A stretch of DNA of 64,000 nt from an uncultured Alphaproteobacteria bacterium (GCA_937912005.1 CALDOX010000015.1:180303-244302), one strand, 5' to 3'. Counted from the first letter of the stretch, positions 17,359 to 59,080 are shown. A program made the numbers and translations. Notes: generated by a model from the sequence alone, not told the origin.

Positions 17359-17374
17359 TGGCACGCCTATTGCA
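17359..17374 (+). promoter_or_regulatory. Sigma-54 promoter (TGGCAC-N5-TTGCA) driving fliK-flgD-flgE.
   Basis: A perfect consensus, tTGGCACgcctaTTGCAtt, lies about 40 nt upstream of the fliK ATG. A sigma-54 activator gene (flbD) is present in the same locus. Confidence 0.7.
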
Positions 17375-33089: not shown

Positions 33090-35018
33090 ATGAGCAGCCC
33101 TACCGTTTCCCTTCAAAATTCGGGGCTCACTGCTCAAACGGCCGCGGCAGCGACGGTTGTATCCATTCCGGATGCGCCTGCGGAAATGCGGGAACTGCCC
33201 ACGGGATCAATTTTGCCGGCCGTATTCATTCCTGCCAAAACCGTATCGGAAATGCCGGTCATACAAATGACTTTGCCCGACGGCAAAGAATTGGCCGTTC
33301 CCGTCAAAAGCACGCATATGCTGCGCGTTCCGACACCGGTCAGCATAAAAATCCTGCCTTTCGACGCAAAAAAAACGATGACGGTCCGCGTCCACTTTTC
33401 AGCCCCTCTGCCCGATATCAAAAAAGCGATAAAAGACCTGCCGGAAGCTTTACAGTCACAAGACGCCACGGCTTCTTCCGTTCAAAAACATTCTATTCCT
33501 CTCAGAGCTTTCGTTCTGCGATCCGTTCCCGAACAAATTACAGCTTTGATGAATGAAATGGAATCTCCCGTCGAACAAAATCTGCCGCCTTTAAAACCGG
33601 AGCAAACCGTTCGATTGGAAATTTCTCCGCAATCGAATCAAACAATAAACGCATTAACAGAACATACGCGCCTTCCCGCTGTGCAGACGACAGATCAAAG
33701 CACTTTTCCCAATTCACCACCAAACACCGTTCCGGAAATATCCGAAACAAAGCCGGATTCTTTACCGTCCTTTTCGGCAAATACTTCCGTTTCAACACCC
33801 GAATCATCCGATATTTCTTCCTTTCCCGTAAAAGAAAGCGCTCCGGCTTCTGTTGTGCAATCAATACCGCGACAGGATATCCCCTCCTCTTTTCCGGCCG
33901 AAAATCAGGAAGCGCAAACATCCGTCATTTCTCCAAAAACGGAACCGGCATCGCCTTCCTTTTCTGTTCCACGAGAAAATCCGCCTGAAACCGTTTCACG
34001 GGCTTCTGCTCTCCCGACACAAACTCCCCCGGCTCTTTCCTTAGAAAAAAACGAACCGTTTATTAAAGATCATCCTCTGCCCCTTCCTGCGGAACCGGCG
34101 CCCGAACAAATCTCTTCCCCAACATCCTCATCTGCCGAAAAAACAACACAAATCTTGCCCTCTCCCTTCCCTTTAAAAGGAGTCGTTTTCGATTTTAAAG
34201 AACGCTCGGCTCCTCTGGTTATTACCAAAATAGGCGTATTGGCACTGGAAGAAAAAATTCAACTGCCGCATTTGACACCGGTCAATGTTCAAATTACGGA
34301 AATAGCCGAGCCGCCGGCATTCTCTTTAACGGAGCATACGGACAATCCCGTTTTCCGAGGAATTGAAGAAACGTTGAATTTGCTGCGGGACACGGATTCG
34401 GCATCGTTCGAATCTTTCAAAAACGCCCTGCCGCAAATCGGCAATAAATTGCCGGCGCAAATCATTTCTTTTATCAACACCGCTTCCCGAAACGTGCCGG
34501 TTTCTTCTTTTATCGGGGAATCAAGCGTCGTCGTATTGCAAAGTTTAGGTGAAAAGGGGCATAGTCTGCTTACTCAAATCGAAAAAGAAATCACCGCTTC
34601 ACCAAAAAAAGTCACGGATGGCCGAAGCTCTTGGAAAGGATGGACCGTTCCTTTTTTATCCGGCGCAATAGTCGAACCGGTTTCTCTTTATTTGCAAAAA
34701 CCGCACGAAAACGGCCACCGGCAAAAAGGAACAGTCTCCAAACCGAATGCCGTCCGTTTCGTTTTGGATTTGAATCTGACACGACTGGGCAATCTGCAAA
34801 TGGACGGACTGGCTCACCGCAGCGAGCGTCGGTTTGACTTGATCATACGCCATCAAAACGATTTGCCTGACGCTTTTGATGAAAAAATCCGTTTCATTTT
34901 CACACAGACTTTATCGGCGTTGAATTATACGGGAACGGTCAAGGTTGATCACACGGATCAATTTATCGTTTTAACTCAAGAACTTGAAACCGAATCAAAA
35001 CGGGGTGTTTGGGCGTGA
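33090..35018 (+). CDS. Proline/serine-rich protein with a FliK-like (Flg_hook) C-terminal domain. It may be a second length-control or flagellar accessory protein.
   Basis: 642-aa ORF. The central ~350 aa are Pro/Ser/Thr-rich and low in complexity. The C-terminal segment RFVLDLNLTRLGNLQMDGLAHRSERRFDLIIRHQND...IRFIFTQTLSALNYTG follows the L-x-L-x-LG-x-L pattern of the FliK C-terminal domain. The ORF is in-operon, 10 nt after fleN. Confidence 0.4.
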   Translation: MSSPTVSLQNSGLTAQTAAAATVVSIPDAPAEMRELPTGSILPAVFIPAKTVSEMPVIQMTLPDGKELAVPVKSTHMLRVPTPVSIKILPFDAKKTMTVRVHFSAPLPDIKKAIKDLPEALQSQDATASSVQKHSIPLRAFVLRSVPEQITALMNEMESPVEQNLPPLKPEQTVRLEISPQSNQTINALTEHTRLPAVQTTDQSTFPNSPPNTVPEISETKPDSLPSFSANTSVSTPESSDISSFPVKESAPASVVQSIPRQDIPSSFPAENQEAQTSVISPKTEPASPSFSVPRENPPETVSRASALPTQTPPALSLEKNEPFIKDHPLPLPAEPAPEQISSPTSSSAEKTTQILPSPFPLKGVVFDFKERSAPLVITKIGVLALEEKIQLPHLTPVNVQITEIAEPPAFSLTEHTDNPVFRGIEETLNLLRDTDSASFESFKNALPQIGNKLPAQIISFINTASRNVPVSSFIGESSVVVLQSLGEKGHSLLTQIEKEITASPKKVTDGRSSWKGWTVPFLSGAIVEPVSLYLQKPHENGHRQKGTVSKPNAVRFVLDLNLTRLGNLQMDGLAHRSERRFDLIIRHQNDLPDAFDEKIRFIFTQTLSALNYTGTVKVDHTDQFIVLTQELETESKRGVWA

Positions 35019-41202: not shown

Positions 41203-44200
41203 ATGACGCAGGACACAGAAGCCGAATACAACTCGAATGCTTTTTCCGACGATACAAAAATGATGTTTTCCGAACAAAGCGGTTTGCCTGAACAAGTCAA
41301 ACCGCAAAAAACGGATAACAGCTTGATCGCCGCTGCCGCTTTAAGCATTGTCTGGGCCTTTTTGGTCATTGATTATCTGCTGTCCAGCGGTTGGTGGGCA
41401 GCACGTTTTGAAATGACTCCGCCCGAGTTTATGAGCATTATCGCCGGATCTTTGTCTCCGTTTGCTTTTATTTGGATTGCCGCCATTTATTTTTCTTCTC
41501 AGCGCAAATATGTCAAAGAAGCCCGAAAGCTGCGCAGTTATATTTTTGAATTTACGCATCCCAACGCCAAAAACAAATTATACGTCAAGTCCCTGTTGGA
41601 TGATATCCGCCAACAAACATCGGATTTAAACATTGTGTACGGCTTGTTGAAAGAATGCACAAACAACACGCAAAACGCTTTAAAAGACCGATTAAACGAT
41701 CTGAACCGCATTGTCGCCGCCCTTCAGGAAGACATCGAAACATCCGTTCATAAAATAGGGCAGCAAACGGAACTGCTTAACGAATCGTCCGTACAAATCA
41801 ATGAAAGAACAACAGAAGCTGCCGGATTGCTGGAAACGAACCTGACGGCCATTCAAACCGCAGCCGATCAATTTTCCGACCTGACATCTTCGGTTAATTC
41901 CGATTTGCAAACTGCTGTTCATCAACTGACCGAAACCGGCGATACGCTCTCCGACAAAACGCTGCGCATTTCTTCCGAAATTCGGGAACAACAAACATTA
42001 CTGCAAAACACCGCTGAAAACGTACGCGATATTATGACGCGTCAAACAGCCGCCGCAGCCGCGGAATTAAACCGTCAGAGCGCTTTTATTGTCGAAGCGG
42101 GGAATCGCATATTCGAGACAGTCAACCAACAATCACTCCGCGTCAAAGAGGCTGTTGAAAATCATGTAGCCGCCCTGACCGGCAGCGGCGAATCTATTGA
42201 AAATAATGTTTATTCCATTATCTCCGATTTAGAAACACAGATTTCTGTTCTGAACGATACGGCGCAATCCGCTCAAGACAACACGGAAAAAATGCTGTCC
42301 GGATTGGAACGGCGCATCAATATGCTTGAAGACCTTTTCAGCAAACAAATCGATACCGTTTCCGCCAACGACAAACAGCTGCTTGAAACAGCCGGACAAA
42401 TTCAAAACACCTTTAAAGAACAAAATGCGCTGCTGGATCAGGAAGCGGAAAAAATTATCACGCGTTTCAAAACGATTGAAACAACATTGGATACTTATAT
42501 TAATGAAATCAATTCGGCTTCGACAACCGCGATTGATCAAATTTCCGTCGTTTCCGAATCCCTGAGCGGAAAAGCGGGCCAGATTGCCGCCGTCGGCGAA
42601 CAAACCCGGACAGAAATATCGGCTGTTGACGAAGATATTTCAAACAGAGCCGGCCGTTTGACGGAAGCGGTTTCCAGATTGAAAGAACGGGCTGAAACCG
42701 TTTCGGCGGCTTTAACCGAGCATACTCAAAAACTGGCGGAAGCATTGGACGGCACAGAGCCGCGCTTATCCGCCATTCAGGAAAACATTCGGACAAGCCT
42801 TGCGGAACTGAACGACAACATAACCGCGACAGAAGAAAAAACGGAAACGGCTTGCCAGAAATTAATGAAGCAAAACAATGAGTTGTCAGATTTGACCGGT
42901 GCTTTGGTTTCTCAAGCGATTGTAACGGAAACATCTTTGGCTCAGCAACAAAAATACATTTCCAACGCTGCCGCAAAAATAGATGCGGCCAAAACCGATC
43001 TGAAAGAACAATCGACAGATTTGACGGATATTGCCGAATTGCTTGATTCGCGTGCGGCGGAAACGGTTTTGCGTCTGACCCGTTTATTCGAAGACACTCT
43101 GACGCAGTCCGGCAAAATCGTCGATCAGGTCAATACGCTGGATGCCAGCCTTTTAAGTAAAATCAACGCCTTGGATATGTCTTCGCAAAAGACGGTCATC
43201 GCCAACAATACGCTGCATGAAGAATTGGATCGCCATAAAGCGCTTTTGGACGCTTCCGCAAATCGGATGACCACCTACGCGGAAGAAATAAGCGCGGAAA
43301 TTGCCAGACAAACGACTCAAATGGATATTTCTTCCGAACTGATCCAATCCCGCTGTGAAAAAGTCGTTCAGCAAATTGACGAACAGTTCAGAAAATTAAC
43401 GGAAGACGCCCAAATTTTAATTGACAACACACAAAACGCTTCCACCGTGATGACGGATCAGTCCGAAAAACTTGAAACGCTCTTTAACCGGCAAAACTCA
43501 ACATTATCCGAAGTATCGGACAAACTGGCGGAACAAAGTTCTCAGGTTGCAACGATGCTTCGCGAACAATCCGAACAGGCGGATAAAGATTTGGAACGCC
43601 TTGTTTCCAGAATCAATTTAATTGAAGAAGGATTGAACGTTCAAACAAAAGAACTCTCCCACGCTTCCGAAATGACCATATCGCAGCTGGAAACCGTCGG
43701 AACAGCCTTAACGCGCCAAGCGGAAACATTGTCAACGCTCAGCGATGACACGAAGGAAAAAATAGCAGAAATCAGTTCTTCCGTTTCCGACGCCACGACA
43801 AAATTATCGGAAATGGCGCAGATCGCCTGCCAACGCAATTCCGAATCTTTATCCGCTTTGGAAGCCAAACAAAATGACTTTAAGCAATCCGCAGACGATT
43901 TGATGCAGAGAATCCTTGCTTTGCAGGATGAAATATCGCAGCAAACCGACAATTTGCAAAAACAGTCTGTCAAATCGACACAGCAAGCCGTTATGGTACG
44001 CGATTCCATGCAACGGCATATTGTTGATCTGGGAGACGTGGCCAATATCGTGGCAACGCAATCCCGTATGGGGGAAGCGGCGCTAAGCAATCAGATCAAT
44101 TATCTGAAAGAAGCGGCGGAAAACGTTATGACGCACATCCGAAGCATTAATGAAGCGGTTCGTCAGAATACAAACGATTTGTTGACCGCGTCTTCGCGAA

Positions 44201-45369
44201 TCGGTTTTGAATTGGATGCGATGGGTGAAAATTTGCGCCGCAGAAATGAGGAAGCATCCAAATCTGCCGAAGACAGTTTGGCCAGATCGCAGGCCGCCGC
44301 TCAATTTTTGGAAGAAAAAGCTATTCTTTTATCCGATATGACCGAACAGGTAACGAACAATCTGACGACGGCCGGCAATGAATTTTCAGCCCATGCCAAT
44401 ATGATCGAAGCTGCCGGACAAATCGCCAGGGAACAGCTGGAAACGACGGGAGAATCTTTCCTGGTTCAATCTCATCAGCTGACCCGTATTTCCGAAGACG
44501 CACAAAAGGCCGTTAAAAACCTGAGTATTGTTATGCGGGAACGGGCGGTTGATTTCAATAAAACCGCCGAAGAAGCCGGCGCCCGGGTACGCAGTATGAA
44601 TGATACCATCATACAGATCGAAAAAGAATTTGAAGAAATGTCAAACAAAGGCGTTATTCAAATTGACCTGGCCGGCCAGCGTCTGCGCTCCATGCTCAGC
44701 GAAGTGGCCGGAAATTCCGAACGCATTGCCGTTGAAGTGCGTAAATCCGGCGAACAGTTTGTCGATCAGTCGGATTTGTTGTCCGTCGCTGCGGATGACG
44801 CATTAAAACGGCTGCAGAATTTATTGAATATCATGCGTGAAAACGCCAAAGAAATTCAGGAATCCGGCGAAAAGATTTCGGCTCAGTCTCTGAAATTGGG
44901 CGGTGCGTTCAACAGACAGGTTCAGTCTTTGATTTCCGCCTCCCGATCGGCGGAAGAATACATTACCGCATTGGATAAAAGAAAAGAAGAAGCCGATACG
45001 GATCGTTTTATGAAAGAAGCCTCTTTTATTCTGGAAAGGCTGCAGTCTTTGGGTGTTGATATGGCGCGCATTTATACGCCAAATGTTGAAGAAGACCTTT
45101 GGAAACGGTATTATTCCGGCGACAGAAGCGCGTTTATTCGTCATCTGTCCCGCGCAGTCGACAAACAACAAGTACGAAAAATAACGGAAACTTTTACGGA
45201 AAACGCTGAATTCAGAGAATATGTTTCCCGCTATATTGCCGAATTTGACAGTATTTTATCCCGCGCTCAGGAAAATGAACGCTCTGATATTTTAACCGGT
45301 ATTTTGCTGGGCTCCGAAGCGGGACGTTTGTACATGCTTCTATCCAAAATCTTCAATAAGGAAGCTTAA
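41203..45369 (+). CDS. Large two-TM coiled-coil protein with TipN-like topology (candidate polarity/flagellar-placement landmark).
   Basis: 1388 aa. It has a ~40-aa cytoplasmic head and two TM helices (LIAAAALSIVWAFLVIDYLLS; IIAGSLSPFAFIWIAAIYF). About 1290 aa of Glu/Gln/Leu/Thr-rich heptad-like sequence follows, with no recognisable catalytic motifs. Confidence 0.45.
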   Translation: MTQDTEAEYNSNAFSDDTKMMFSEQSGLPEQVKPQKTDNSLIAAAALSIVWAFLVIDYLLSSGWWAARFEMTPPEFMSIIAGSLSPFAFIWIAAIYFSSQRKYVKEARKLRSYIFEFTHPNAKNKLYVKSLLDDIRQQTSDLNIVYGLLKECTNNTQNALKDRLNDLNRIVAALQEDIETSVHKIGQQTELLNESSVQINERTTEAAGLLETNLTAIQTAADQFSDLTSSVNSDLQTAVHQLTETGDTLSDKTLRISSEIREQQTLLQNTAENVRDIMTRQTAAAAAELNRQSAFIVEAGNRIFETVNQQSLRVKEAVENHVAALTGSGESIENNVYSIISDLETQISVLNDTAQSAQDNTEKMLSGLERRINMLEDLFSKQIDTVSANDKQLLETAGQIQNTFKEQNALLDQEAEKIITRFKTIETTLDTYINEINSASTTAIDQISVVSESLSGKAGQIAAVGEQTRTEISAVDEDISNRAGRLTEAVSRLKERAETVSAALTEHTQKLAEALDGTEPRLSAIQENIRTSLAELNDNITATEEKTETACQKLMKQNNELSDLTGALVSQAIVTETSLAQQQKYISNAAAKIDAAKTDLKEQSTDLTDIAELLDSRAAETVLRLTRLFEDTLTQSGKIVDQVNTLDASLLSKINALDMSSQKTVIANNTLHEELDRHKALLDASANRMTTYAEEISAEIARQTTQMDISSELIQSRCEKVVQQIDEQFRKLTEDAQILIDNTQNASTVMTDQSEKLETLFNRQNSTLSEVSDKLAEQSSQVATMLREQSEQADKDLERLVSRINLIEEGLNVQTKELSHASEMTISQLETVGTALTRQAETLSTLSDDTKEKIAEISSSVSDATTKLSEMAQIACQRNSESLSALEAKQNDFKQSADDLMQRILALQDEISQQTDNLQKQSVKSTQQAVMVRDSMQRHIVDLGDVANIVATQSRMGEAALSNQINYLKEAAENVMTHIRSINEAVRQNTNDLLTASSRIGFELDAMGENLRRRNEEASKSAEDSLARSQAAAQFLEEKAILLSDMTEQVTNNLTTAGNEFSAHANMIEAAGQIAREQLETTGESFLVQSHQLTRISEDAQKAVKNLSIVMRERAVDFNKTAEEAGARVRSMNDTIIQIEKEFEEMSNKGVIQIDLAGQRLRSMLSEVAGNSERIAVEVRKSGEQFVDQSDLLSVAADDALKRLQNLLNIMRENAKEIQESGEKISAQSLKLGGAFNRQVQSLISASRSAEEYITALDKRKEEADTDRFMKEASFILERLQSLGVDMARIYTPNVEEDLWKRYYSGDRSAFIRHLSRAVDKQQVRKITETFTENAEFREYVSRYIAEFDSILSRAQENERSDILTGILLGSEAGRLYMLLSKIFNKEA

Positions 45370-45542
45370 AAAAAACATCATTTCCGCGGCCTTCGGCAAA
45401 AAGAAAAGTTGTTTGTTTAATGTGTTTTGTCTTATGATAATGATCGGAAAACGAAAAAACGACAAAAAGACAGAAGCAATACATGCAACGCTTTTTTATC
45501 GGATAAATATATTTTTAAAGCTTATTTAACAGGAGAAATCAA

Positions 45543-45872
45543 ATGCAAATCGAAAAAACGCAGGAAGGTGATATTGTTGTTTTGAAGGTTATCGGCCAGC
45601 TGACATCGTCAACATCGCCTGCGCTGGAAACCGCTGTTAACGACGTTTTGAAAACGGAAAGCAATCTTGTTTTAGATTTTGCCGAATTGGATTTTTTGGC
45701 TTCCTCCGGTTTACGCGTCATTTTATCGACTCAGAAAAGAATAAACGCCAAAAACGGCGCGCTGGTTATCCGCAACGTCAATAAAGTTGTGATGGAAGTG
45801 TTTGAAATGACCGGATTGCGGGATTTTCTCAATGTTTTCCAGGGCAATCGGCAGATTTCCGGTTCAAAATGA
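45543..45872 (+). CDS. STAS-domain anti-sigma-factor antagonist (SpoIIAA/RsbV-like).
   Basis: 109 aa. LDFAELDFLASSGLRVIL is a typical STAS phospho-serine region. Strong RBS (AGGAGA). Confidence 0.8.
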   Translation: MQIEKTQEGDIVVLKVIGQLTSSTSPALETAVNDVLKTESNLVLDFAELDFLASSGLRVILSTQKRINAKNGALVIRNVNKVVMEVFEMTGLRDFLNVFQGNRQISGSK

Positions 45873-45920: not shown

Positions 45921-48218
45921 ATGCTCGAAAAAAAAGCCCCCTCTTTGCACCGCGTTTTTCAAGCGTGGTTGTTGTTGTTTGTCTTTATCGCTTTTTGCAT
46001 CATATTCGGCCTTTCGTATTTCTTTCAAACGCGTTCGGCTCAAAATATGATGATGCGTCAGGCGGTTTTACATTTGGATTATATCGGCAATCAGGTCAAA
46101 ATCATTGAAGACGATTTAAAAGATCTGAAAAAAGAATTAAGCAACGGTTTGGTTGAAAAAGCCCGTGTTTTTGCCATGCTTTTGAAAAATGCGCCGATAT
46201 TGCTGCATAATAAAAACTTTTTGCGTGATTGGAGCAAAGACGCGGGAATAGAAGAAATCAGCATCCTTGGCAAAGACGGCATCGTGATCGAATCTTTTCC
46301 GGAAAAATTCATCGGCACCGATTTTAAAGAATACGATCTGATGCACCCCTATTTACCGTTGATTAACAAGAACAACGGCGTTTATATCGAAGATTTGCGC
46401 ACCAGTTATAACAAAAGCGGCAGCGTTAATTCGTTGGTACAATTTGTCGGCGTATCACGTTTGGATGCTCCCGGCGTCATTCAGATGGGGTATTCGGCCG
46501 AACGATATGCCGAAGCATTAAAAACGGCGTCCGCCGACGTTTTAGCCGATGATTATATTCTGGGAAAAGACGGTTTTATCATTATCTCAAAAGACGATAA
46601 AATTATCAGCGCCGGACATAAAGAGTTAAAAGGAACGACTTTGACGGGTTCCGATTGGAACTTCATCAAAGATATGCCGGAAAATCAGATTTTATTAAAA
46701 AATTCCGTTTTCCTGATGTCACGACAAATTGATTCTTATCGTTTAACCGCCGTCATGCCGAAAAGCGATGTTTACGCCTTCCGCAATACGATTTTATCGT
46801 GGGCGGCTCTCGTTTACATACTTCTGCTGTTCATCGTGTACGTTTTCCTGTCGGCATTATTGGAGCGGGTCGTCGTCCGCGGGATTGAAAAAACAAACAC
46901 GACATTGGAAAAAATTACCGAAGGAAACCTGAACGAAAAAGTCGATGTGCATTCGAATCTGGAATTTGTTTCTCTGTCCAACGGCATTAACACAATGGTT
47001 GACACGTTGAAAGAAGCGATTGCCGAAGCAGCCGCCCGTTTGGATAAGGAATTGGAATTTGCCCGAGAAATTCAACATGCCGCTTTGCCGCGCATATTTC
47101 CGCCGTATCCCAACAAAAACGAATTCGATATTTTTGCATCAATGACGGCGGCAAAAGAAGTCGGAGGCGATTTTTACGATTTCTTTTTATTGGGACACAA
47201 CGGAAGTCATATCGGCATCGTCATTGCCGACGTATCCGGAAAAGGAATTCCGGCTGCTTTGTTTATGATGTCCGCCAAAACGCTAATCAAAAATTTTGCC
47301 GAAACGGGAATGTCGCCCGCAGAAATTTTTTATCATACAAACGAAAAATTATGTGAAAACAACGAAGCCGGCATGTTTGTAACGGCGTTTATGGGGATAT
47401 TGGAAATCGAAACCGGCAAATTCACCTATGTCAATGCGGGACACAATCCTCCGTTGATAAAACGGGCGGACGGCGGTTTTGAACGAATGACGTTAAAACC
47501 TGGATTTATGTTGGGCGCTCTGGATTCTTTTGCGTATCAACAGAGCGAAACATGTCTGGACGGCGGCGACACCATATTTTTATATACCGACGGTGTTACG
47601 GAAGCTCAAAATAAAAACCTGGAATTGTTTGGAGACGATCGTTTGCGCGACGTTTTGAACGAAAACGCTGATAAAGCGCCGAAAGAACTGCTGACAGCCG
47701 TGCATAAAGCGGTTGCCGCGTATGTTGACGGCGCGGAACAATCCGATGATTTAACTATGCTGGCTTTGACATATCATCCGAAAACGCTGACCGTTCCCGC
47801 TGAAATCGAACATCAGGACGACGTTATGAACTTTGTTGACGAGATGTTGAAAAAAGCCTCCGCATCGCCGGAAACCATCGCCAAAACGAATATCGTGTTG
47901 GATGAAATTTTTACCAACATCTGTCATTACGCATATGCGCCGGCCAAAGGAACAGCGACGATTCGTTGTTGTGTCGGCGGAACGCCCGCTTTTATGTCTT
48001 TGGTATTCCGCGACAAAGGAAAGCCGTTTAACCCGTTGAACAAAGCGGATCCTGATATTACGGCAAAAATAGAAGACCGTGAAATCGGCAATCTGGGCAT
48101 TTTTATGGTAAAACAGATCATGGATTCCGTCGAATATGAATACAAAAACGAAGAAAACGTGCTGACCATGGTCAAACGTTTGGAAACCGCTTTGAACGAA
48201 AAACAGCCGATTGATTAA
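45921..48218 (+). CDS. Fused partner-switching protein: membrane sensor, HAMP, PP2C (SpoIIE/RsbU) phosphatase and an RsbW-like GHKL serine kinase, all in one polypeptide.
   Basis: Two TM helices flank a ~250-aa periplasmic domain, followed by a HAMP-like helix. Next comes the PP2C domain (VGGDFYDFF...GIVIADVSGKGIPAALFM...LYTDGVTEA). Last comes a HATPase_c_2 domain (N-box DEIFTNICHYAY, G-box GNLGIFMVKQ). Confidence 0.75.
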   Translation: MLEKKAPSLHRVFQAWLLLFVFIAFCIIFGLSYFFQTRSAQNMMMRQAVLHLDYIGNQVKIIEDDLKDLKKELSNGLVEKARVFAMLLKNAPILLHNKNFLRDWSKDAGIEEISILGKDGIVIESFPEKFIGTDFKEYDLMHPYLPLINKNNGVYIEDLRTSYNKSGSVNSLVQFVGVSRLDAPGVIQMGYSAERYAEALKTASADVLADDYILGKDGFIIISKDDKIISAGHKELKGTTLTGSDWNFIKDMPENQILLKNSVFLMSRQIDSYRLTAVMPKSDVYAFRNTILSWAALVYILLLFIVYVFLSALLERVVVRGIEKTNTTLEKITEGNLNEKVDVHSNLEFVSLSNGINTMVDTLKEAIAEAAARLDKELEFAREIQHAALPRIFPPYPNKNEFDIFASMTAAKEVGGDFYDFFLLGHNGSHIGIVIADVSGKGIPAALFMMSAKTLIKNFAETGMSPAEIFYHTNEKLCENNEAGMFVTAFMGILEIETGKFTYVNAGHNPPLIKRADGGFERMTLKPGFMLGALDSFAYQQSETCLDGGDTIFLYTDGVTEAQNKNLELFGDDRLRDVLNENADKAPKELLTAVHKAVAAYVDGAEQSDDLTMLALTYHPKTLTVPAEIEHQDDVMNFVDEMLKKASASPETIAKTNIVLDEIFTNICHYAYAPAKGTATIRCCVGGTPAFMSLVFRDKGKPFNPLNKADPDITAKIEDREIGNLGIFMVKQIMDSVEYEYKNEENVLTMVKRLETALNEKQPID

Positions 48219-48384: not shown

Positions 48385-49251
48385 ATGACGATGACAACAG
48401 CTTTTTTACCAGTCGTTCAAAACGGCATACAATCTTATTTGGCGTCAATCAGACGCATTCCCGTTTTATCTGCCGAAGAAGAATATATGCTGGCGAATCG
48501 GTTTCGCAATCATGGCGACTTGTCCGCAGCAAAAAAACTGATTTCGGCACATCTGCGGTTGGCTGCTAAAGTCGCCTTTTCCTATCGGTTCTACGGCCTG
48601 CCTATGGAGGATTTGATTTCCGAAGCCAATATCGGCCTGATGCAGGCGGTCAAACGCTTTGAACCGGATAAAGGCAACAGGCTTTCCACCTATGCGGTTT
48701 GGTGGATTAAAGCCGCCGTCAACGAATTTATTTTAAAATCCTGGTCTTTAGTGCGGATCGGCACAATCGCGGCACAAAAGCGGTTGTTTTACAATCTGCG
48801 CAAAATCAAAGCGAAACTGGGACTTTACGACAATACGTCGTTAGATCAGGAAAGCATCAAAGAAATATCGCAAAACCTGAATGTGCCCGAAGAAGATGTC
48901 GCGGAAATGGATATCCGTTTAAACGGAGACGTTTCTTTAAACACGCCTGTTTATGAGGACGGCTATGCCGAAAAACAGGACTTTTTAAGCGATGACCACA
49001 ACATTGAAGAATCGCTGGCCGAACATCAGGAAAGCACGATGCGCCTGCAGCTGCTGGCGCAGGCGATGGGCAAACTGAACGATCGCGAACGTGCGATTAT
49101 CCGGGCGCGCAAACTGTCCGAAACACCGGATACATTGGATGCTTTAGGCGAACGTCTGGGCATTTCCCGCGAACGCGTGCGTCAAATTGAAAACCGCGCC
49201 GTTGAAAAAATGACACAGTTTATTCAGTCCCGCGCGGGTGCGCTCGTTTAA
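48385..49251 (+). CDS. rpoH: RNA polymerase sigma-32 factor RpoH.
   Basis: 288 aa with sigma-70 regions 2-4. The RpoH box-like segment and an alphaproteobacterial RpoH-style N-terminus (SYLASIRRIPVLSAEEEYMLA). Confidence 0.9.
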   Translation: MTMTTAFLPVVQNGIQSYLASIRRIPVLSAEEEYMLANRFRNHGDLSAAKKLISAHLRLAAKVAFSYRFYGLPMEDLISEANIGLMQAVKRFEPDKGNRLSTYAVWWIKAAVNEFILKSWSLVRIGTIAAQKRLFYNLRKIKAKLGLYDNTSLDQESIKEISQNLNVPEEDVAEMDIRLNGDVSLNTPVYEDGYAEKQDFLSDDHNIEESLAEHQESTMRLQLLAQAMGKLNDRERAIIRARKLSETPDTLDALGERLGISRERVRQIENRAVEKMTQFIQSRAGALV

Positions 49252-54667: not shown

Positions 54668-55426
54668 TTATCCCTTTGATAAAACGGCTATAATTGCAGA
54701 TATTATCAGTCCGAAAATAAAAATCAAAAAAAAGTCGCTAACGGTAAATTTTTCTGCTTTTTCTTTTTCAACATCTTCTTCACGTTCTTCTGTTTCATCA
54801 TTTGTTTTTCCATAATCTGATGCATCTTCGTTCTGTTCCTTAAATTTTTCTCCTTGTAGAAACAAAATACAGGCTTGATAATAAATCAATACGAGTGCCG
54901 CTATAATGTTAATCCCTTTTTCTCTGATAAATAAACCGCAGATCGGCGGAATCAGCATTACCCACAACGTAACATTTAAGTCTTTCAGTCTTTTTATATA
55001 TGATGACGCCAGCAACCAAATAAAGGCGACGGTTAACGGAACAACAACAAGTTTATAAATTTCAGGAACAGCCGTACACGGAACAACGATCGCAAAAAGC
55101 GCAATATAAACAATCACCCGCGCATAAAAATATTCCAATCGGGAATATGTACCGTCAAAAGAAAAATATTCCTTAAGGTCTTTTGAAAAGAACTTTCGAA
55201 ACATTTTCGGGAAACTGACAATTCCGTTTTCACAGTTCGAATAATCATAGTCGCCGTAATTTTCTTCTTCTGTTGTACCTTCATACGACGTCCATTCCGT
55301 CTCTTTCTCTTTTTCAATATCACCGACAGGCGTTCCGCAATACATACAAAAGTTTGCGCCCTGACGAATTTCTTTTCCGCAATTTGAACAAAACATCTTA
55401 TTTTTCCTCTTTGCTATGATCTTCAA
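54668..55426 (-). CDS. Zinc-ribbon plus DUF805-like integral membrane protein.
   Basis: N-terminal CSNCGKEIRQGANFCMYCG zinc ribbon, then RLEYFYARVIVYIALF, three or four TM helices and an acidic tail. The locus is about 35% GC. Confidence 0.55.
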   Translation of the reverse strand: MKIIAKRKNKMFCSNCGKEIRQGANFCMYCGTPVGDIEKEKETEWTSYEGTTEEENYGDYDYSNCENGIVSFPKMFRKFFSKDLKEYFSFDGTYSRLEYFYARVIVYIALFAIVVPCTAVPEIYKLVVVPLTVAFIWLLASSYIKRLKDLNVTLWVMLIPPICGLFIREKGINIIAALVLIYYQACILFLQGEKFKEQNEDASDYGKTNDETEEREEDVEKEKAEKFTVSDFFLIFIFGLIISAIIAVLSKG

Positions 55427-55997
55427 TCGCCTGATATTTTTCCGCTGCCGGTAATTTGGCGTTGTCTTTATCTTCCGGAGTCAGCGCGGCACATAAAGTT
55501 GTAGCCGCTGTTATTGCGTTTGTTGCCGTTATTCCCGCCTGCATACCGCCTCCCAATGCGGCCAGACCGCTTGTAGTTGCCGCCGCACCTGCCGTTCCCG
55601 TCGCTGACAAAGACGATACGACGCCGGCAGCGGCAACATTACCGATTGCAAATCCGACAGCGGCTTTCCCGATAAATTTCCCGCATTTTTCGGCTGTTTC
55701 AACGGTTTCCGGAGAAACGTCGCAAAACTCGCATACTTTTTTAGCCGCCAATCCGGTAGCGTCACCCGCTAAAACAATCGTTCCGTCAATAGCGGTTTCT
55801 GCAAAATCAGATACGGGAACGGACACGCCTTCTATAGTTGACGATATTTGATCGCTTACCTTTTGAAGCGATTTTTTTGTTTTAGCGTCATCTATAAAAC
55901 TGGCCGCCACATAAAATGCCGCTTTTTGGGCCGCATCAACGGAAACGGATGATAATTTAATGATATTTTTTGCTATTTTTCCGAATGTAAAAGCCAT
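55398..55997 (-). CDS. Hypothetical Gly/Ala/Thr-rich protein with glycine-zipper-like segments.
   Basis: 199 aa. The C-terminal half has GxxxG/AxxxA repeats (GFAIGNVAAAGVVSSLSATGTAGAAATTSGLAALGGGMQAGI). It overlaps the downstream gene by 29 nt. Confidence 0.45.
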   Translation of the reverse strand: MAFTFGKIAKNIIKLSSVSVDAAQKAAFYVAASFIDDAKTKKSLQKVSDQISSTIEGVSVPVSDFAETAIDGTIVLAGDATGLAAKKVCEFCDVSPETVETAEKCGKFIGKAAVGFAIGNVAAAGVVSSLSATGTAGAAATTSGLAALGGGMQAGITATNAITAATTLCAALTPEDKDNAKLPAAEKYQAIEDHSKEEK

Positions 55998-56322: not shown

Positions 56323-56373
56323 GAAAGAAAAGACTGAACGGCTGTTTTCCCGTGATCTGTATTATATAAAAAA

Positions 56374-56399
56374 GCTCCCGATTTCTCGGGAGCTTTTTT
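56374..56399. terminator. Rho-independent terminator immediately downstream of ctrA.
   Basis: aaaaagctcccga-ttt-ctcgggagctttttt; A/T runs flank it on both sides. Confidence 0.6.
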
Positions 56400-57086
56400 C
56401 TAACCTTCTTTTTTCGGTTCGCGCAAAACGTAGCCGCGTCCCCAAACGGTTTCGATATAATCGTCCCCGCCGGTCGCTTCGGCGATTTTTTTGCGCAATT
56501 TGCAGATGAACACGTCAATAATCTTCAATTCCGGTTCGTCCATACCATTATACAGATGATTCAGGAATTGTTCCTTGGACAGTGTCGTTCCTTTCGACAG
56601 CGACAAACGTTCCAGAATACCGTATTCGCGGCCGGTCAGATGCAGCGGCTTGCCGTTGACGAACGCTGTTCTGGTATCCAGATTGACTTCGATCGCTCCG
56701 GTACGGATAACCGATTCCGGATGACCTTTCGACCGGCGAACCAAAGCGCGGATACGAGCGACTAATTCCGCCTTGTCAAACGGTTTCGTCAGATAATCGT
56801 CCGCACCGGTGGACAATCCCTTAACCTTTTTATCCGCGCCGGACAAACCGGACAGAATCAAAACAGGCGTGCTGATTTTAGATGCGCGCAGCCGCTTTAA
56901 CACTTCATATCCGTCCATATCCGGCAGCATTAAGTCTAAAATGATGATGTCGTAATCGTACAGCTTGCCGATTTCCAAACCGTCTTCACCCAAAACGGTC
57001 GGATCAACAACCATTCCTTCCTTATGCAGGACGGCTTCGATCGTCTGAGCCATCGCCTTGTCATCTTCAACCAATAAAACGCGCAT
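56400..57086 (-). CDS. ctrA: Cell-cycle response regulator CtrA (OmpR family).
   Basis: 228 aa, near-collinear with Caulobacter Ctr[10 protein letters not shown]..., D51 in [17 protein letters not shown], and a C-terminal [15 protein letters not shown]...[11 protein letters not shown]. Confidence 0.9.
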
Positions 57087-57116
57087 AGAATCACCCTTAT
57101 TCGAGGAAAAATAAAA

Positions 57117-57132
57117 TTAACTTCTTATTAAC
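57117..57132. promoter_or_regulatory. CtrA box (TTAA-N7-TTAAC) in the divergent ctrA/fliI intergenic region.
   Basis: TTAActtcttaTTAAC lies about 30 nt upstream of the ctrA ATG on the opposite strand and about 130 nt upstream of fliI. Confidence 0.55.
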
Positions 57133-57261
57133 TTTATGTTGTATGAATCTCAGATGCAAGCCTATATTTCAATGAAAAATAATTTTTTTTATTTTTTTGA
57201 TAAAAGGGCGACAAAGCATCAAGGAAAGATTATATTATAAATACAGCTTCGGGAATAAAGA

Positions 57262-58611
57262 ATGGACACTTATCTGAAAAACCTGATTGACGATATTGAT
57301 GCTTTGCCGGAATACCGCTGTTACGGTTCCGTTTGCGCGGTTAAAGGCATGCTGGTTGAAATATCCGGCATCCGCGCCGATTTGTCCGTCGGAGACAGAT
57401 GCTGTATCGGTGCGCGCGGCGATAAAAAAGTCGTCTGCGAAGTCGTCGGTTTCAATAATGACAAAGTGTTGGCGATGCCGTTTATGAATCTGGATGGCGT
57501 CGGTCCCGGCAATCCGGTAGATGTCAGCAATTCCCGTCCCGTCTTGTTTCCCGATGTGTCATGGCTGGGACGCGTCATCAACGCGATGGGCGAACCAGTG
57601 GACGGCAAAGGTCCTTTAATCAAAGGCAAAGTTCCTTGTCTGATTCACAACTCCCCTCCCCCAGCGCATTCCCGCGAGCGCGTTGCCGGCAAAGCCGATC
57701 TGGGCGTACGGGCGATTAACACTTTTCTGACGGTCTGCAAAGGGCAGCGTATGGGAATTTTCGCCGGTTCCGGCGTCGGCAAATCATCTTTGATGGCGAT
57801 GATGGCGCGCCATACGCAGTTGGACGTAACCGTTTTGGGATTGATCGGCGAACGTGGCCGCGAAGCCCGCGAATTTATTGAAGACGACCTGGGCGAAGAA
57901 GGCATGAAGCGCAGCGTCGTCGTCGTCGCGACTTCTGACGAATCTCCTCTGATGCGCCGACAGGCCGCCTATGTCGCGATGACCGTCGCCGAATATTTCC
58001 GCGATCTGAAACAAAACGTTTTATGTATGATGGACAGCATCACGCGTTTTGCCATGGCGCAGCGTGAAATCAGCCTGTCCGCCGGCGAACCGCCCGCAAC
58101 GAAAGGCTACACGCCGACCGTTTTCGCCGAACTGCCCCGATTGCTGGAACGCGCGGGACCGGGACCGATCGGCAAAGGTTCCATTACGGGACTGTTCACC
58201 GTGTTGGTGGACGGAGACGACCACAACGAACCGATCGCGGACGCCGTGCGCGGTATTTTGGACGGGCATATCGTTCTGGAACGCTCGATCGCCGAACGCA
58301 ACCGCTATCCGGCGATCAACCTGCTGCGCAGCATTTCCCGTACAATGCCGGGATGCAACAACGACGATGAAAACGCTCTGGTCAACCGTGCGCGGGCTTT
58401 AATGGCGACTTATCAGGATATGGAAGAATTAATTCGTCTGGGCGCGTACAAACGCGGTTCCAACGAACAGGTCGATGAATCGATTTTCTATCACGACAAA
58501 CTGGAAGCTTTCCTGTCGCAAAAGAAAAAGGAAAAATTCGATTTTGCGGCCGGTTATCAGCAGCTGAAAGACATTCTGGCGCAAAATCCTGCCGGCCCGT
58601 CTCAAAAGTAA
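57262..58611 (+). CDS. fliI: Flagellum-specific ATPase FliI.
   Basis: 449 aa. Walker A GSGVGKSSL, Walker B LCMMDSITR, F1/T3SS ATPase family. Confidence 0.9.
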   Translation: MDTYLKNLIDDIDALPEYRCYGSVCAVKGMLVEISGIRADLSVGDRCCIGARGDKKVVCEVVGFNNDKVLAMPFMNLDGVGPGNPVDVSNSRPVLFPDVSWLGRVINAMGEPVDGKGPLIKGKVPCLIHNSPPPAHSRERVAGKADLGVRAINTFLTVCKGQRMGIFAGSGVGKSSLMAMMARHTQLDVTVLGLIGERGREAREFIEDDLGEEGMKRSVVVVATSDESPLMRRQAAYVAMTVAEYFRDLKQNVLCMMDSITRFAMAQREISLSAGEPPATKGYTPTVFAELPRLLERAGPGPIGKGSITGLFTVLVDGDDHNEPIADAVRGILDGHIVLERSIAERNRYPAINLLRSISRTMPGCNNDDENALVNRARALMATYQDMEELIRLGAYKRGSNEQVDESIFYHDKLEAFLSQKKKEKFDFAAGYQQLKDILAQNPAGPSQK

Positions 58612-58621
58612 AAGGTAGCGA

Positions 58622-59080
58622 ATGGCCGGCAAAGATTTAAAAACCCTTATCCGTGTCCACAAGTTCGAACTGGACGAAAAACAAAGGCAGCTTGGCAACT
58701 TGCTGCGGTTTGAACAAGCTTTGCAAAACCGCAAAATCCTATTGGCCAAACGCTTTGTTGAAGAGGAGGAAGCCGCGAACTCCAGCCCTATTGCCGCTCT
58801 GACATTCGGAGCTTATGTCGATTGGCATGTTGAAGAAAACAAACGCGTTGACCGCGCCTTGGAGGAAAACAGACAGGAAATTCTGTTGATGCGCGACGAA
58901 ATCATCGAAGCGTATCAGGAGTTGAAAACTCTTGAAATCACGCAAGAAAATCGTGATAAACGCGAATTGGCTGAACTGGAACGCAAAACAAACGCCATGC
59001 TGGACGAAATCGGTCTGACCCTATACCGCCGCCGTCAGGAAACGGACAGAGAAGACGAAAAAAACAATGACGTTTCCTGA
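58622..59080 (+). CDS. fliJ: Flagellar export chaperone FliJ-like coiled-coil protein.
   Basis: 152 aa, charged and coiled-coil, immediately downstream of fliI. Confidence 0.55.
   Translation: MAGKDLKTLIRVHKFELDEKQRQLGNLLRFEQALQNRKILLAKRFVEEEEAANSSPIAALTFGAYVDWHVEENKRVDRALEENRQEILLMRDEIIEAYQELKTLEITQENRDKRELAELERKTNAMLDEIGLTLYRRRQETDREDEKNNDVS

Follow-up and report, generated by a model that had tools for sequence, protein, structure and literature searches.

Introduction

Autoregulation of the response regulator CtrA and CtrA-driven transcription of early flagellar genes, fliI included, are already established in Alphaproteobacteria. Here we analyze a locus where both may meet at one operator: the spacer between the divergent genes ctrA and fliI, the latter followed by a fliJ-like gene, in a stretch of 64,000 nucleotides (nt) from an uncultured Alphaproteobacteria bacterium (GCA_937912005.1 CALDOX010000015.1:180303-244302), hereafter called the window. 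In Caulobacter, the ctrA promoter P1 is repressed by CtrA and activated by GcrA together with hemimethylation. This promoter carries a TTAA element at -14, a GANTC motif between its -35 and -10 elements and a SciP motif, GCGAC, at -78 (Zhou et al. 2015, PMC4287350). The consensus of a full CtrA site is TTAA-N7-TTAA, often with a 3' C (PMC4287350, PMC6180460); TTAA elements lying over the -10 region repress, and activation is exerted by full sites whose 5' end is near -35 (Zhou et al. 2015, PMC4287350).

On the flagellar side, mapped CtrA promoters of R. sphaeroides, including fliI2p, start at a purine that lies 23-24 nt from the 3' boundary of the site, and their base at -11 is an invariant A (Rivera-Osorio et al. 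2018, PMC6180460), and fliI of this bacterium is a direct CtrA target according to mutagenesis and chromatin immunoprecipitation. A single CtrA site can also serve two divergent promoters, as in R. sphaeroides fliF2p/fliL2p and Caulobacter flgBp/fliOp; for the flgB/fliO pair, one promoter is described as repressed and the other as activated through the shared site. No clear transcriptional feedback was described for the cluster of Magnetospirillum and Rhodospirillum (Brilli et al. 2010, PMC2877005).

We propose that the ctrA/fliI spacer of the window holds a single CtrA site common to two divergent promoters that overlap, where CtrA would repress ctrA and probably activate fliI-fliJ, and we assign this reading a rough probability of 0.55. 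The sequence of the site, its conservation and position and the identity of the genes are observed; both start sites, the binding of CtrA and the sign of the regulation are predictions from the sequence. The arrangement resembles the divergent pairs mentioned above in its single shared site. It would differ from the flgB/fliO type in that the repressed partner is the regulator's own gene, and in that the core promoters interpenetrate, each -10 element lying within the spacer of the other, whereas they stand back to back in those pairs. The analysis goes slightly beyond the literature consulted in the breadth of the ctrA/fliI pairing, in the shared 43 base pair (bp) core and in that no positive-feedback promoter of the P2 type was seen.

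The CtrA box between ctrA and fliI

The ctrA gene (56400-57086, minus strand) encodes a response regulator of the OmpR family with 228 residues, which matches the NCBIfam CtrA equivalog model NF045991 over its full length (391 bits, cut-off 350). On the plus strand, fliI (57262-58611) encodes a flagellar export ATPase of 449 residues matching TIGR03498, FliI_clade3 (653 bits, cut-off 587). An open reading frame (ORF) for a fliJ-like export chaperone (58622-59080, plus strand) begins 10 nt past the fliI stop codon, and the two probably form one operon; its match to TIGR02473 is below the cut-off (24.6 bits), and the precomputed annotation of identical contigs assigns it to PF02050, FliJ. A sequence-only reading of this DNA had reported a perfect CtrA box between divergent ctrA and fliI-fliJ, in an AT-rich spacer with a long T/A tract, and all of this was confirmed. 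The spacer (57087-57261) is 175 bp long and has 26% GC, compared with ~47% for the window, with the tract at ~57163-57207. The box, TTAACTTCTTATTAAC, is an exact plus-strand match to TTAA-N7-TTAA(C) at 57117-57132, with half-sites at 57117-57120 and 57128-57131 and the N7 gap at 57121-57127; given that TTAA is its own reverse complement, it can also be read as a direct repeat, TTAAC-N6-TTAAC.

That reading had also implicitly treated the perfect match as strong evidence by itself, a view that the background frequency of the motif, a test named in the reading itself, does not bear out. TTAA-N7-TTAA occurs twice in the window for 2.37 expected, and the form followed by C twice for 0.70 expected. 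When the spacer was shuffled 20,000 times with dinucleotides preserved, the core motif was present in 7.1% of the shuffles and the motif with its flanking C, on either strand, in 0.7%. TTAA as such is somewhat depleted across the window (321 occurrences, 378 ± 19 expected), and none other is present in 57133-57261. The perfect match thus has little statistical weight here; the significance of the box rests on its conserved position and half-sites in relatives, which carried the evidence. A cluster of CtrA sites of the replication-origin type was considered and rejected, since the spacer holds one box and the cumulative GC skew has no turning point in the window.

Conservation of the spacer in related species

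At least 11 public contigs, from metagenomes or metagenome-assembled genomes (MAGs), encode an identical CtrA protein; those that include the upstream region all have a divergent fliI and a spacer of exactly 175 bp. When species-representative genomes were scanned, 80 ctrA loci were found, or 81 species counting the window. Six of the 80 belong to sister species, named as uncultured Rhodospirillaceae, Rhodospirillales or Alphaproteobacteria, with CtrA 94-99% and FliI 83-92% identical to those of the window. At the other loci, which include Magnetospirillum, Paramagnetospirillum, Pelagibius, Kiloniellaceae, Inquilinus, Niveispirillum and Micavibrio, CtrA is 75-79% identical. The divergent pairing of ctrA and fliI is old and widespread, because 55 of the 81 species carry a divergent fliI within 600 bp of ctrA; a literature search for an earlier description of this synteny returned nothing relevant.

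The spacers of seven species (CtrA 94-100% and FliI 83-100% identical to those of the window) were aligned in order to obtain a footprint, and the sole deeply conserved part is a block of 43 bp at 57117-57159, which begins with the box. Seven of the eight half-site columns are invariant, the exception being a CTAA in one half-site of L013, and the N7 gap, present in four versions, has one invariant column in seven. All six bases adjoining the box, which fall in the predicted ctrA -10 element, are invariant, as are nine of the next 17 and a CTTG. Outside the block, invariant columns number 5 of 30 in the ctrA leader, 6 of 48 in the A/T-rich stretch (57160-57207), which stays A/T-rich in the sister species with its sequence poorly kept, and 2 of 54 in the part proximal to fliI. 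Conserved half-sites around a free gap are the trace that contact by a dimeric protein would be expected to leave.

These patterns bear on the alternative that the CtrA match is coincidental and that the block is simply a core promoter or is bound by another factor, such as GcrA with methylated GANTC, a repressor of the MucR or SciP type, or another reader of TTAA. The lack of enrichment in the window and the 7% chance of the motif in a spacer of this composition are compatible with coincidence, and it is the whole 43 bp block that is conserved, not the half-sites alone. However, the difference between half-sites (7/8) and gap (1/7) is the signature of a protein touching two half-sites, and the half-sites recur at the same distance in distant clades with wholly different flanks, in some cases as the TTAACCAT variant. 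Furthermore, the CtrA encoded by the adjoining gene has an essentially unchanged DNA-binding domain, and Brilli et al. 2010 (PMC2877005) predicted a CtrA site upstream of ctrA for 86% of the alphaproteobacteria in their analysis. We therefore consider coincidence improbable and a functional CtrA site very likely, as judged from this pattern of conservation.

As for the protein, its receiver domain aligns with that of Brucella CtrA (4qpj), the only CtrA domain found in our copy of the PDB, which has no structure of a CtrA DNA-binding domain. Over the DNA-binding domain, identity to the Magnetospirillum, Paramagnetospirillum, Pelagibius, Inquilinus and Micavibrio orthologs is 76-80%, and the 30 residues of the recognition-helix region are nearly unaltered. 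Given how little this domain has changed relative to distant orthologs, canonical CtrA specificity is a fair assumption for the protein of the window.

The position of the box relative to ctrA is also conserved. The distance from its start to the ctrA ATG is 41-45 nt in all the sister species, and sites with at most one mismatch, searched for upstream of ctrA in the 81 species, concentrate at fixed distances from the ATG: 21 loci have one at -55 to -30, compared with 6.1 ± 2.4 in shuffles. The rate of such proximal sites is the same where fliI is adjacent (14/55) and where it is not (7/26), which argues that the box belongs to the ctrA promoter, as far as its placement can tell. At L031, for example, ctrA faces rpmG and a perfect box begins 49 nt before the ctrA ATG, where it appears to overlap a TTGCGT-17-TAACCT promoter. 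Loci of the Magnetospirillum type (L017, L018, L022) read TTGCAG-17 nt-TATGGT|TAAc-N7-TgAA, the layout found in the window, and contain ATGGTTAA, the reverse complement of the published half-site TTAACCAT. These loci thus carry a one-mismatch box together with ATGGTTAA over the ctrA -10 region, in a group for which Brilli et al. 2010 described no clear feedback.

Another layout is present in many gut MAGs (L027-L060 and others, e.g. L037, L044 and L054; CtrA 77-79% identical), which have no proximal N7 box. They carry a perfect palindrome of 16 bp, GTTAATAATTATTAAC (TTAA-N6-TTAA), ~85-105 nt before the ctrA ATG, followed 10-12 nt further on by GTTAAC. CtrA sites with N6 spacing have been reported in M. 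magneticum, in R. sphaeroides fla2 and at Caulobacter ctrA P2, and the palindrome may represent a different, possibly activating, autoregulatory layout.

The predicted ctrA promoter

On the ctrA strand, reading leftward, a TTGCAT hexamer (57154-57159) stands 17 nt from TAAAGT (57131-57136), and we predict that they are the -35 and -10 elements of a sigma-70-type ctrA promoter. The assignment of the -10 hexamer, which ends on the first T of the box, is tentative. For the -35 element, a CTTG is kept without change in the seven species and also occurs at the Magnetospirillum-type loci, and the composite TTGCAT-N17-TAAAGTTAA-N7-TTAA is unique in the window. The predicted start of transcription would lie at ~57124, placing the box at about -7 to +8. 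Downstream of it, a Shine-Dalgarno sequence, AAGGGTGA, was read at 57091-57098 on the minus strand, ~5-12 nt before the ATG, and a purine-rich block holds this position in all seven species.

Since the box overlaps both the -10 element and the start of the best ctrA promoter candidate, the predicted sign of regulation is repression. The opposite arrangement, with the box as a -35 activator site for ctrA, was rejected, since it would put the start of transcription, 23-24 nt beyond the box, within the Shine-Dalgarno sequence and 6-7 nt from the ATG. Between the end of the box and the ATG there are 30 nt, which include the conserved Shine-Dalgarno sequence; hence the box is not an activator site for ctrA, and transcription starting downstream of the box is ruled out by that same sequence. 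The sequence-only reading had proposed CtrA autoregulation in general terms. The footprint and the site rate that is indifferent to the fliI neighbour agree with this proposal, which can now be narrowed to predicted repression, activation of ctrA being excluded by the sequence. Autoregulation of ctrA is likely, with a negative sign as the layout would have it.

This promoter candidate also weighs on the possibility that the box is a class II activator site for fliI only, in which case its overlap with ctrA would be incidental and ctrA would be transcribed from another promoter. Most full TTAA-N7-TTAA sites of Caulobacter are indeed activators with their 5' end near -35 (PMC4287350), and the rightward layout described below fits such a role. 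But the box lies in the sole conserved block upstream of ctrA, where CTTG and ATAAAG are invariant at sigma-70 spacing on the ctrA strand, and lineages in which fliI is not adjacent have boxes equally far from ctrA. Moreover, any ctrA start upstream of the Shine-Dalgarno sequence would put the box at the start or in the leader, where bound CtrA would still impede transcription. A role confined to fliI is, in our view, very improbable.

Within the spacer of the ctrA promoter lies a GANTC motif of the CcrM methylation type (GAATC, 57145-57149), which overlaps the predicted rightward -10 element. It is kept in all seven species, on the ctrA strand as GATTC in six and GAATC in L015, and is not conserved in more distant clades. 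Across the window GANTC is depleted (196 occurrences, 289 ± 16 expected from dinucleotide shuffles), and the intergenic enrichment that would be a sign of regulatory methylation was not found there (2.5 per kb in intergenic and 3.1 per kb in coding DNA).

Considering these elements together, the closest analogue of this promoter appears to be Caulobacter ctrA P1. Both have a CtrA TTAA over the ctrA -10 region, which in the window is a predicted one, and a GANTC between -35 and -10, and negative feedback is predicted here as well. The differences are that a full TTAA-N7-TTAA at about -7 to +8 takes the place of the half-site at -14, and that GANTC is kept only within the sister species. Also unlike Caulobacter, the spacer has no second, CtrA-activated promoter of the P2 type, as it contains no other TTAA, and only the negative arm of the feedback is visible. 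Further upstream, GCGAC at 57208-57212 equals the published SciP half-motif and lies ~85 nt upstream of the predicted ctrA start, similar to its place at -78 in P1; this short motif is present in the five closest species only and is also the -35 element of a fliI-proximal promoter candidate discussed below. The A/T-rich tract (57163-57207, read from the sequence) lies upstream of the ctrA -35 element and within the long leader predicted for fliI; it may possibly act as an UP element for the ctrA promoter. The spacer 57087-57261 has no match to a known structured RNA in Rfam, even at E <= 1.

The predicted fliI promoter

In the rightward direction, the sequence TATGAA (57142-57147, plus strand) is a candidate -10 element, at -12 to -7 relative to a start predicted at an A, 57154. 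The A at -11 is then 57143 and the last base of the second half-site, 57131, stands at -23. In all seven species TATGAWTC is unchanged and a purine occupies the predicted +1. The fliI strand thus agrees with the rule of a 23-24 nt boundary, an A at -11 and a purine at +1 across these species, an agreement that is partly circular given that the start was predicted from the rule itself. With this predicted start, the site would resemble the class II promoters fliQ, fliL and fliF of Caulobacter and fliF2p, fliL2p, flgB2p and fliI2p of R. sphaeroides, in which CtrA sits near -35. It has the canonical N7 spacing in place of the atypical N6 of R. sphaeroides fliI2p, and its divergent partner is ctrA, not flgB. 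As class II content requires, fliI is an early flagellar component belonging to the export apparatus.

Independent support for a class II layout is given by its direction. With mononucleotide shuffles as reference, a site in activator register toward fliI was found at 14 loci with adjacent fliI, compared with 2.3 ± 1.4 in shuffles; toward ctrA the same register was found at 3 loci, compared with 2.0 ± 1.4. In the Magnetospirillum-type spacers (G/C)TAT recurs at this offset, and their ~110 nt offer little space for a further fliI promoter.

A substantial rival, which we still judge rather unlikely, is that the box regulates ctrA alone: it would be an autoregulatory operator that represses or tunes ctrA, fliI-fliJ would be transcribed from a promoter of its own at 57208-57236, and CtrA would control flagellar genes through other targets, e.g. 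fliF. The promoter in question is GCGACA-17 nt-TATATT (plus strand), a sigma-70-like candidate with 9 of 12 consensus matches and the sole promoter-like match of the consensus scan in this region, a scan whose matches do not exceed chance. The five closest species retain it, and it would give a normal leader of ~19 nt, compared with 108 nt for the box-dependent promoter. The box persists where fliI is not adjacent, and the invariant GAWTC is explicable as a methylation site of the ctrA promoter, as at Caulobacter P1. On the other hand, the proximal candidate is not conserved in L015 and L016, and its surroundings are the part of the spacer with 2 invariant columns in 54. The short Magnetospirillum-type spacers would hardly accommodate such a promoter, the activator register recurs in several clades toward fliI and not toward ctrA, and the boundary at -23, the A at -11 and the purine at +1 hold in all seven species. 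Direct CtrA activation of fliIJ is plausible on the basis of this layout. The class II control of fliI that had been suggested earlier stands as plausible, with better support than expected: the layout fits the rule and the site upstream of fliF, described below, is alike, whereas the 108 nt leader and the nearer sigma-70-like promoter speak against it.

A proposed shared control core for ctrA and fliI-fliJ

Our preferred reading, a single site with a dual role, treats the 43 bp block (57117-57159) as a bidirectional control core in which two divergent promoters overlap and the box is the CtrA operator. CtrA~P bound to the box would keep RNA polymerase off the leftward promoter, resulting in negative autoregulation of ctrA, and the same box, 23 nt before 57154, would be in position for CtrA to activate the rightward fliI-fliJ promoter. 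Because each promoter has its -10 element within the spacer of the other, their occupancy would be mutually exclusive, and CtrA~P, once bound, would favour transcription of fliIJ over that of ctrA. Despite their places in the rightward and the leftward spacer, CTTTAT and GAWTCATA, respectively, are invariant; each promoter would thus explain the conservation of the region that is not critical to the other.

Several observations weigh against this arrangement. Both -10 hexamers are imperfect, TAAAGT matching at 4 of 6 positions and TATGAA lacking the T at -7, and the consensus promoter scan reported neither of the overlapping promoters, only the different one proximal to fliI. The invariant GAWTC could reflect methylation or control of the GcrA type instead of a second promoter. 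The rightward promoter needs an A/T-rich leader of 108 nt, while the distance from start to codon is 12-33 nt in R. sphaeroides (PMC6180460), and the Magnetospirillum-type loci do not conform to a strict purine at +1. Motif counts by themselves are not significant. Finally, the enrichment tests drew on related species: the loci in activator register, 14 in number, represent about six clades, and seven of them are the sister species.

The same core layout is found from gut or rumen lineages to Magnetospirillum. This suggests, as a possibility that we advance only tentatively, that the box is a toggle, turning ctrA off and fliI-fliJ on, in a module that goes back to the ancestor of many of the Rhodospirillales-like alphaproteobacteria; the primordial CtrA circuit would then have been a purely negative feedback wired directly to flagellar export, and Caulobacter would have acquired its positive P2 loop later. 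For an uncultured gut or rumen lineage, the finding mainly confirms an intact circuit. It also provides a compact model of the wiring that a motility-type CtrA circuit may have had before the cell-cycle elaborations seen in Caulobacter.

Flagellar genes elsewhere in the window

The fliI-fliJ genes are an isolated pair, and the main flagellar cluster lies at ~17-33 kb, ~26-40 kb away. It contains a fliK-like gene, flgD and flgE; fliF, fliG, an ORF and fliN; a gene for an FlbD-like sigma-54 activator (27818-29140); and flhA with genes for an FlhF-like GTPase of the signal recognition particle type and a MinD/ParA-type ATPase. The fliK-like/flgD/flgE operon is preceded, at ~40 nt, by a perfect sigma-54 promoter, TGGCACGCCTATTGCA (TGGCAC-N5-TTGCA, 17359-17374), the only such motif in the window, where 0.07 are expected. 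This promoter and the FlbD-like activator indicate a putative class III tier, a lower tier like that of Caulobacter.

A search for CtrA boxes upstream of fliF and flhA, which the sequence-only reading had recommended, was carried out within the window. Neither gene has a perfect box, and flhA follows the FlbD-like gene after a gap of 9 nt. Upstream of fliF lies TTAAgagttttTTTA (TTAA-N7-TTTA, 23751-23765, plus strand), a CtrA-like site with one mismatch, followed by TATATT at 23777-23782. The start of fliF would be at an A, 23789, with an A at -11, a position again derived from the rule for mapped promoters itself. The block ATTTATTAAGnGTTTTTTTA...GTTATA is common to the window and the related metagenome loci L091 and L094 within otherwise diverged DNA and is degenerate in L092 and L096. 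As a further point against reading such sites as CtrA targets, one-mismatch sites are common in A/T-rich intergenic DNA, with 12 in 5.2 kb. Taken as a whole, the window looks like a Caulobacter-type hierarchy, in which CtrA would act on fliF and fliI, and FlbD with sigma-54 on the hook genes.

Two ORFs in or beside the cluster have no Pfam match. One encodes 304 residues between fliG and fliN (26498-27412), where FliH or FlbE is expected; the other encodes 642 residues (33090-35018) and follows the FlhF-like and MinD-like genes.

Other features of the window

Directly 3' of the ctrA stop codon, RNA folding revealed an intrinsic terminator hairpin on the minus strand (56365-56396) with T runs on both strands. 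Its stem has 14 bp, and the folded segment (56362-56402, minus strand) reaches -22.1 kcal/mol (z = -6.8), a value equalled by none of 200 shuffles. Weak leader-like matches to Rfam at 56.3-56.4 kb correspond to this hairpin. Adjoining the terminator is a strain-variable insertion of ~1.9 kb. In the window (54668-55997), L003 and L005, it places two genes between ctrA and the gene of an ABC-F ATPase, one for a protein of 199 residues with no family match and the other for a zinc-ribbon/DUF805 protein of 252 residues. Both are missing in L001, L002, L004 and L006, where the ABC gene comes directly after ctrA.

A long ORF of 1388 residues (41203-45369), rich in predicted coiled coil, with many Q, E, L, S and T residues and no Pfam match at E <= 1e-4, lies just upstream of a module that begins with a gene for a STAS-domain anti-sigma-factor antagonist (45543-45872). 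This gene is followed by one for a HAMP-SpoIIE phosphatase-HATPase_c_2 protein (45921-48218) and one for a sigma-70-family factor (48385-49251). The sole other perfect TTAA-N7-TTAAC of the window, at 45515-45530, ends 12 nt before the ATG of the STAS gene. It is too near the start codon for an activator layout and could be either a chance occurrence or a repressor site on this partner-switching module.

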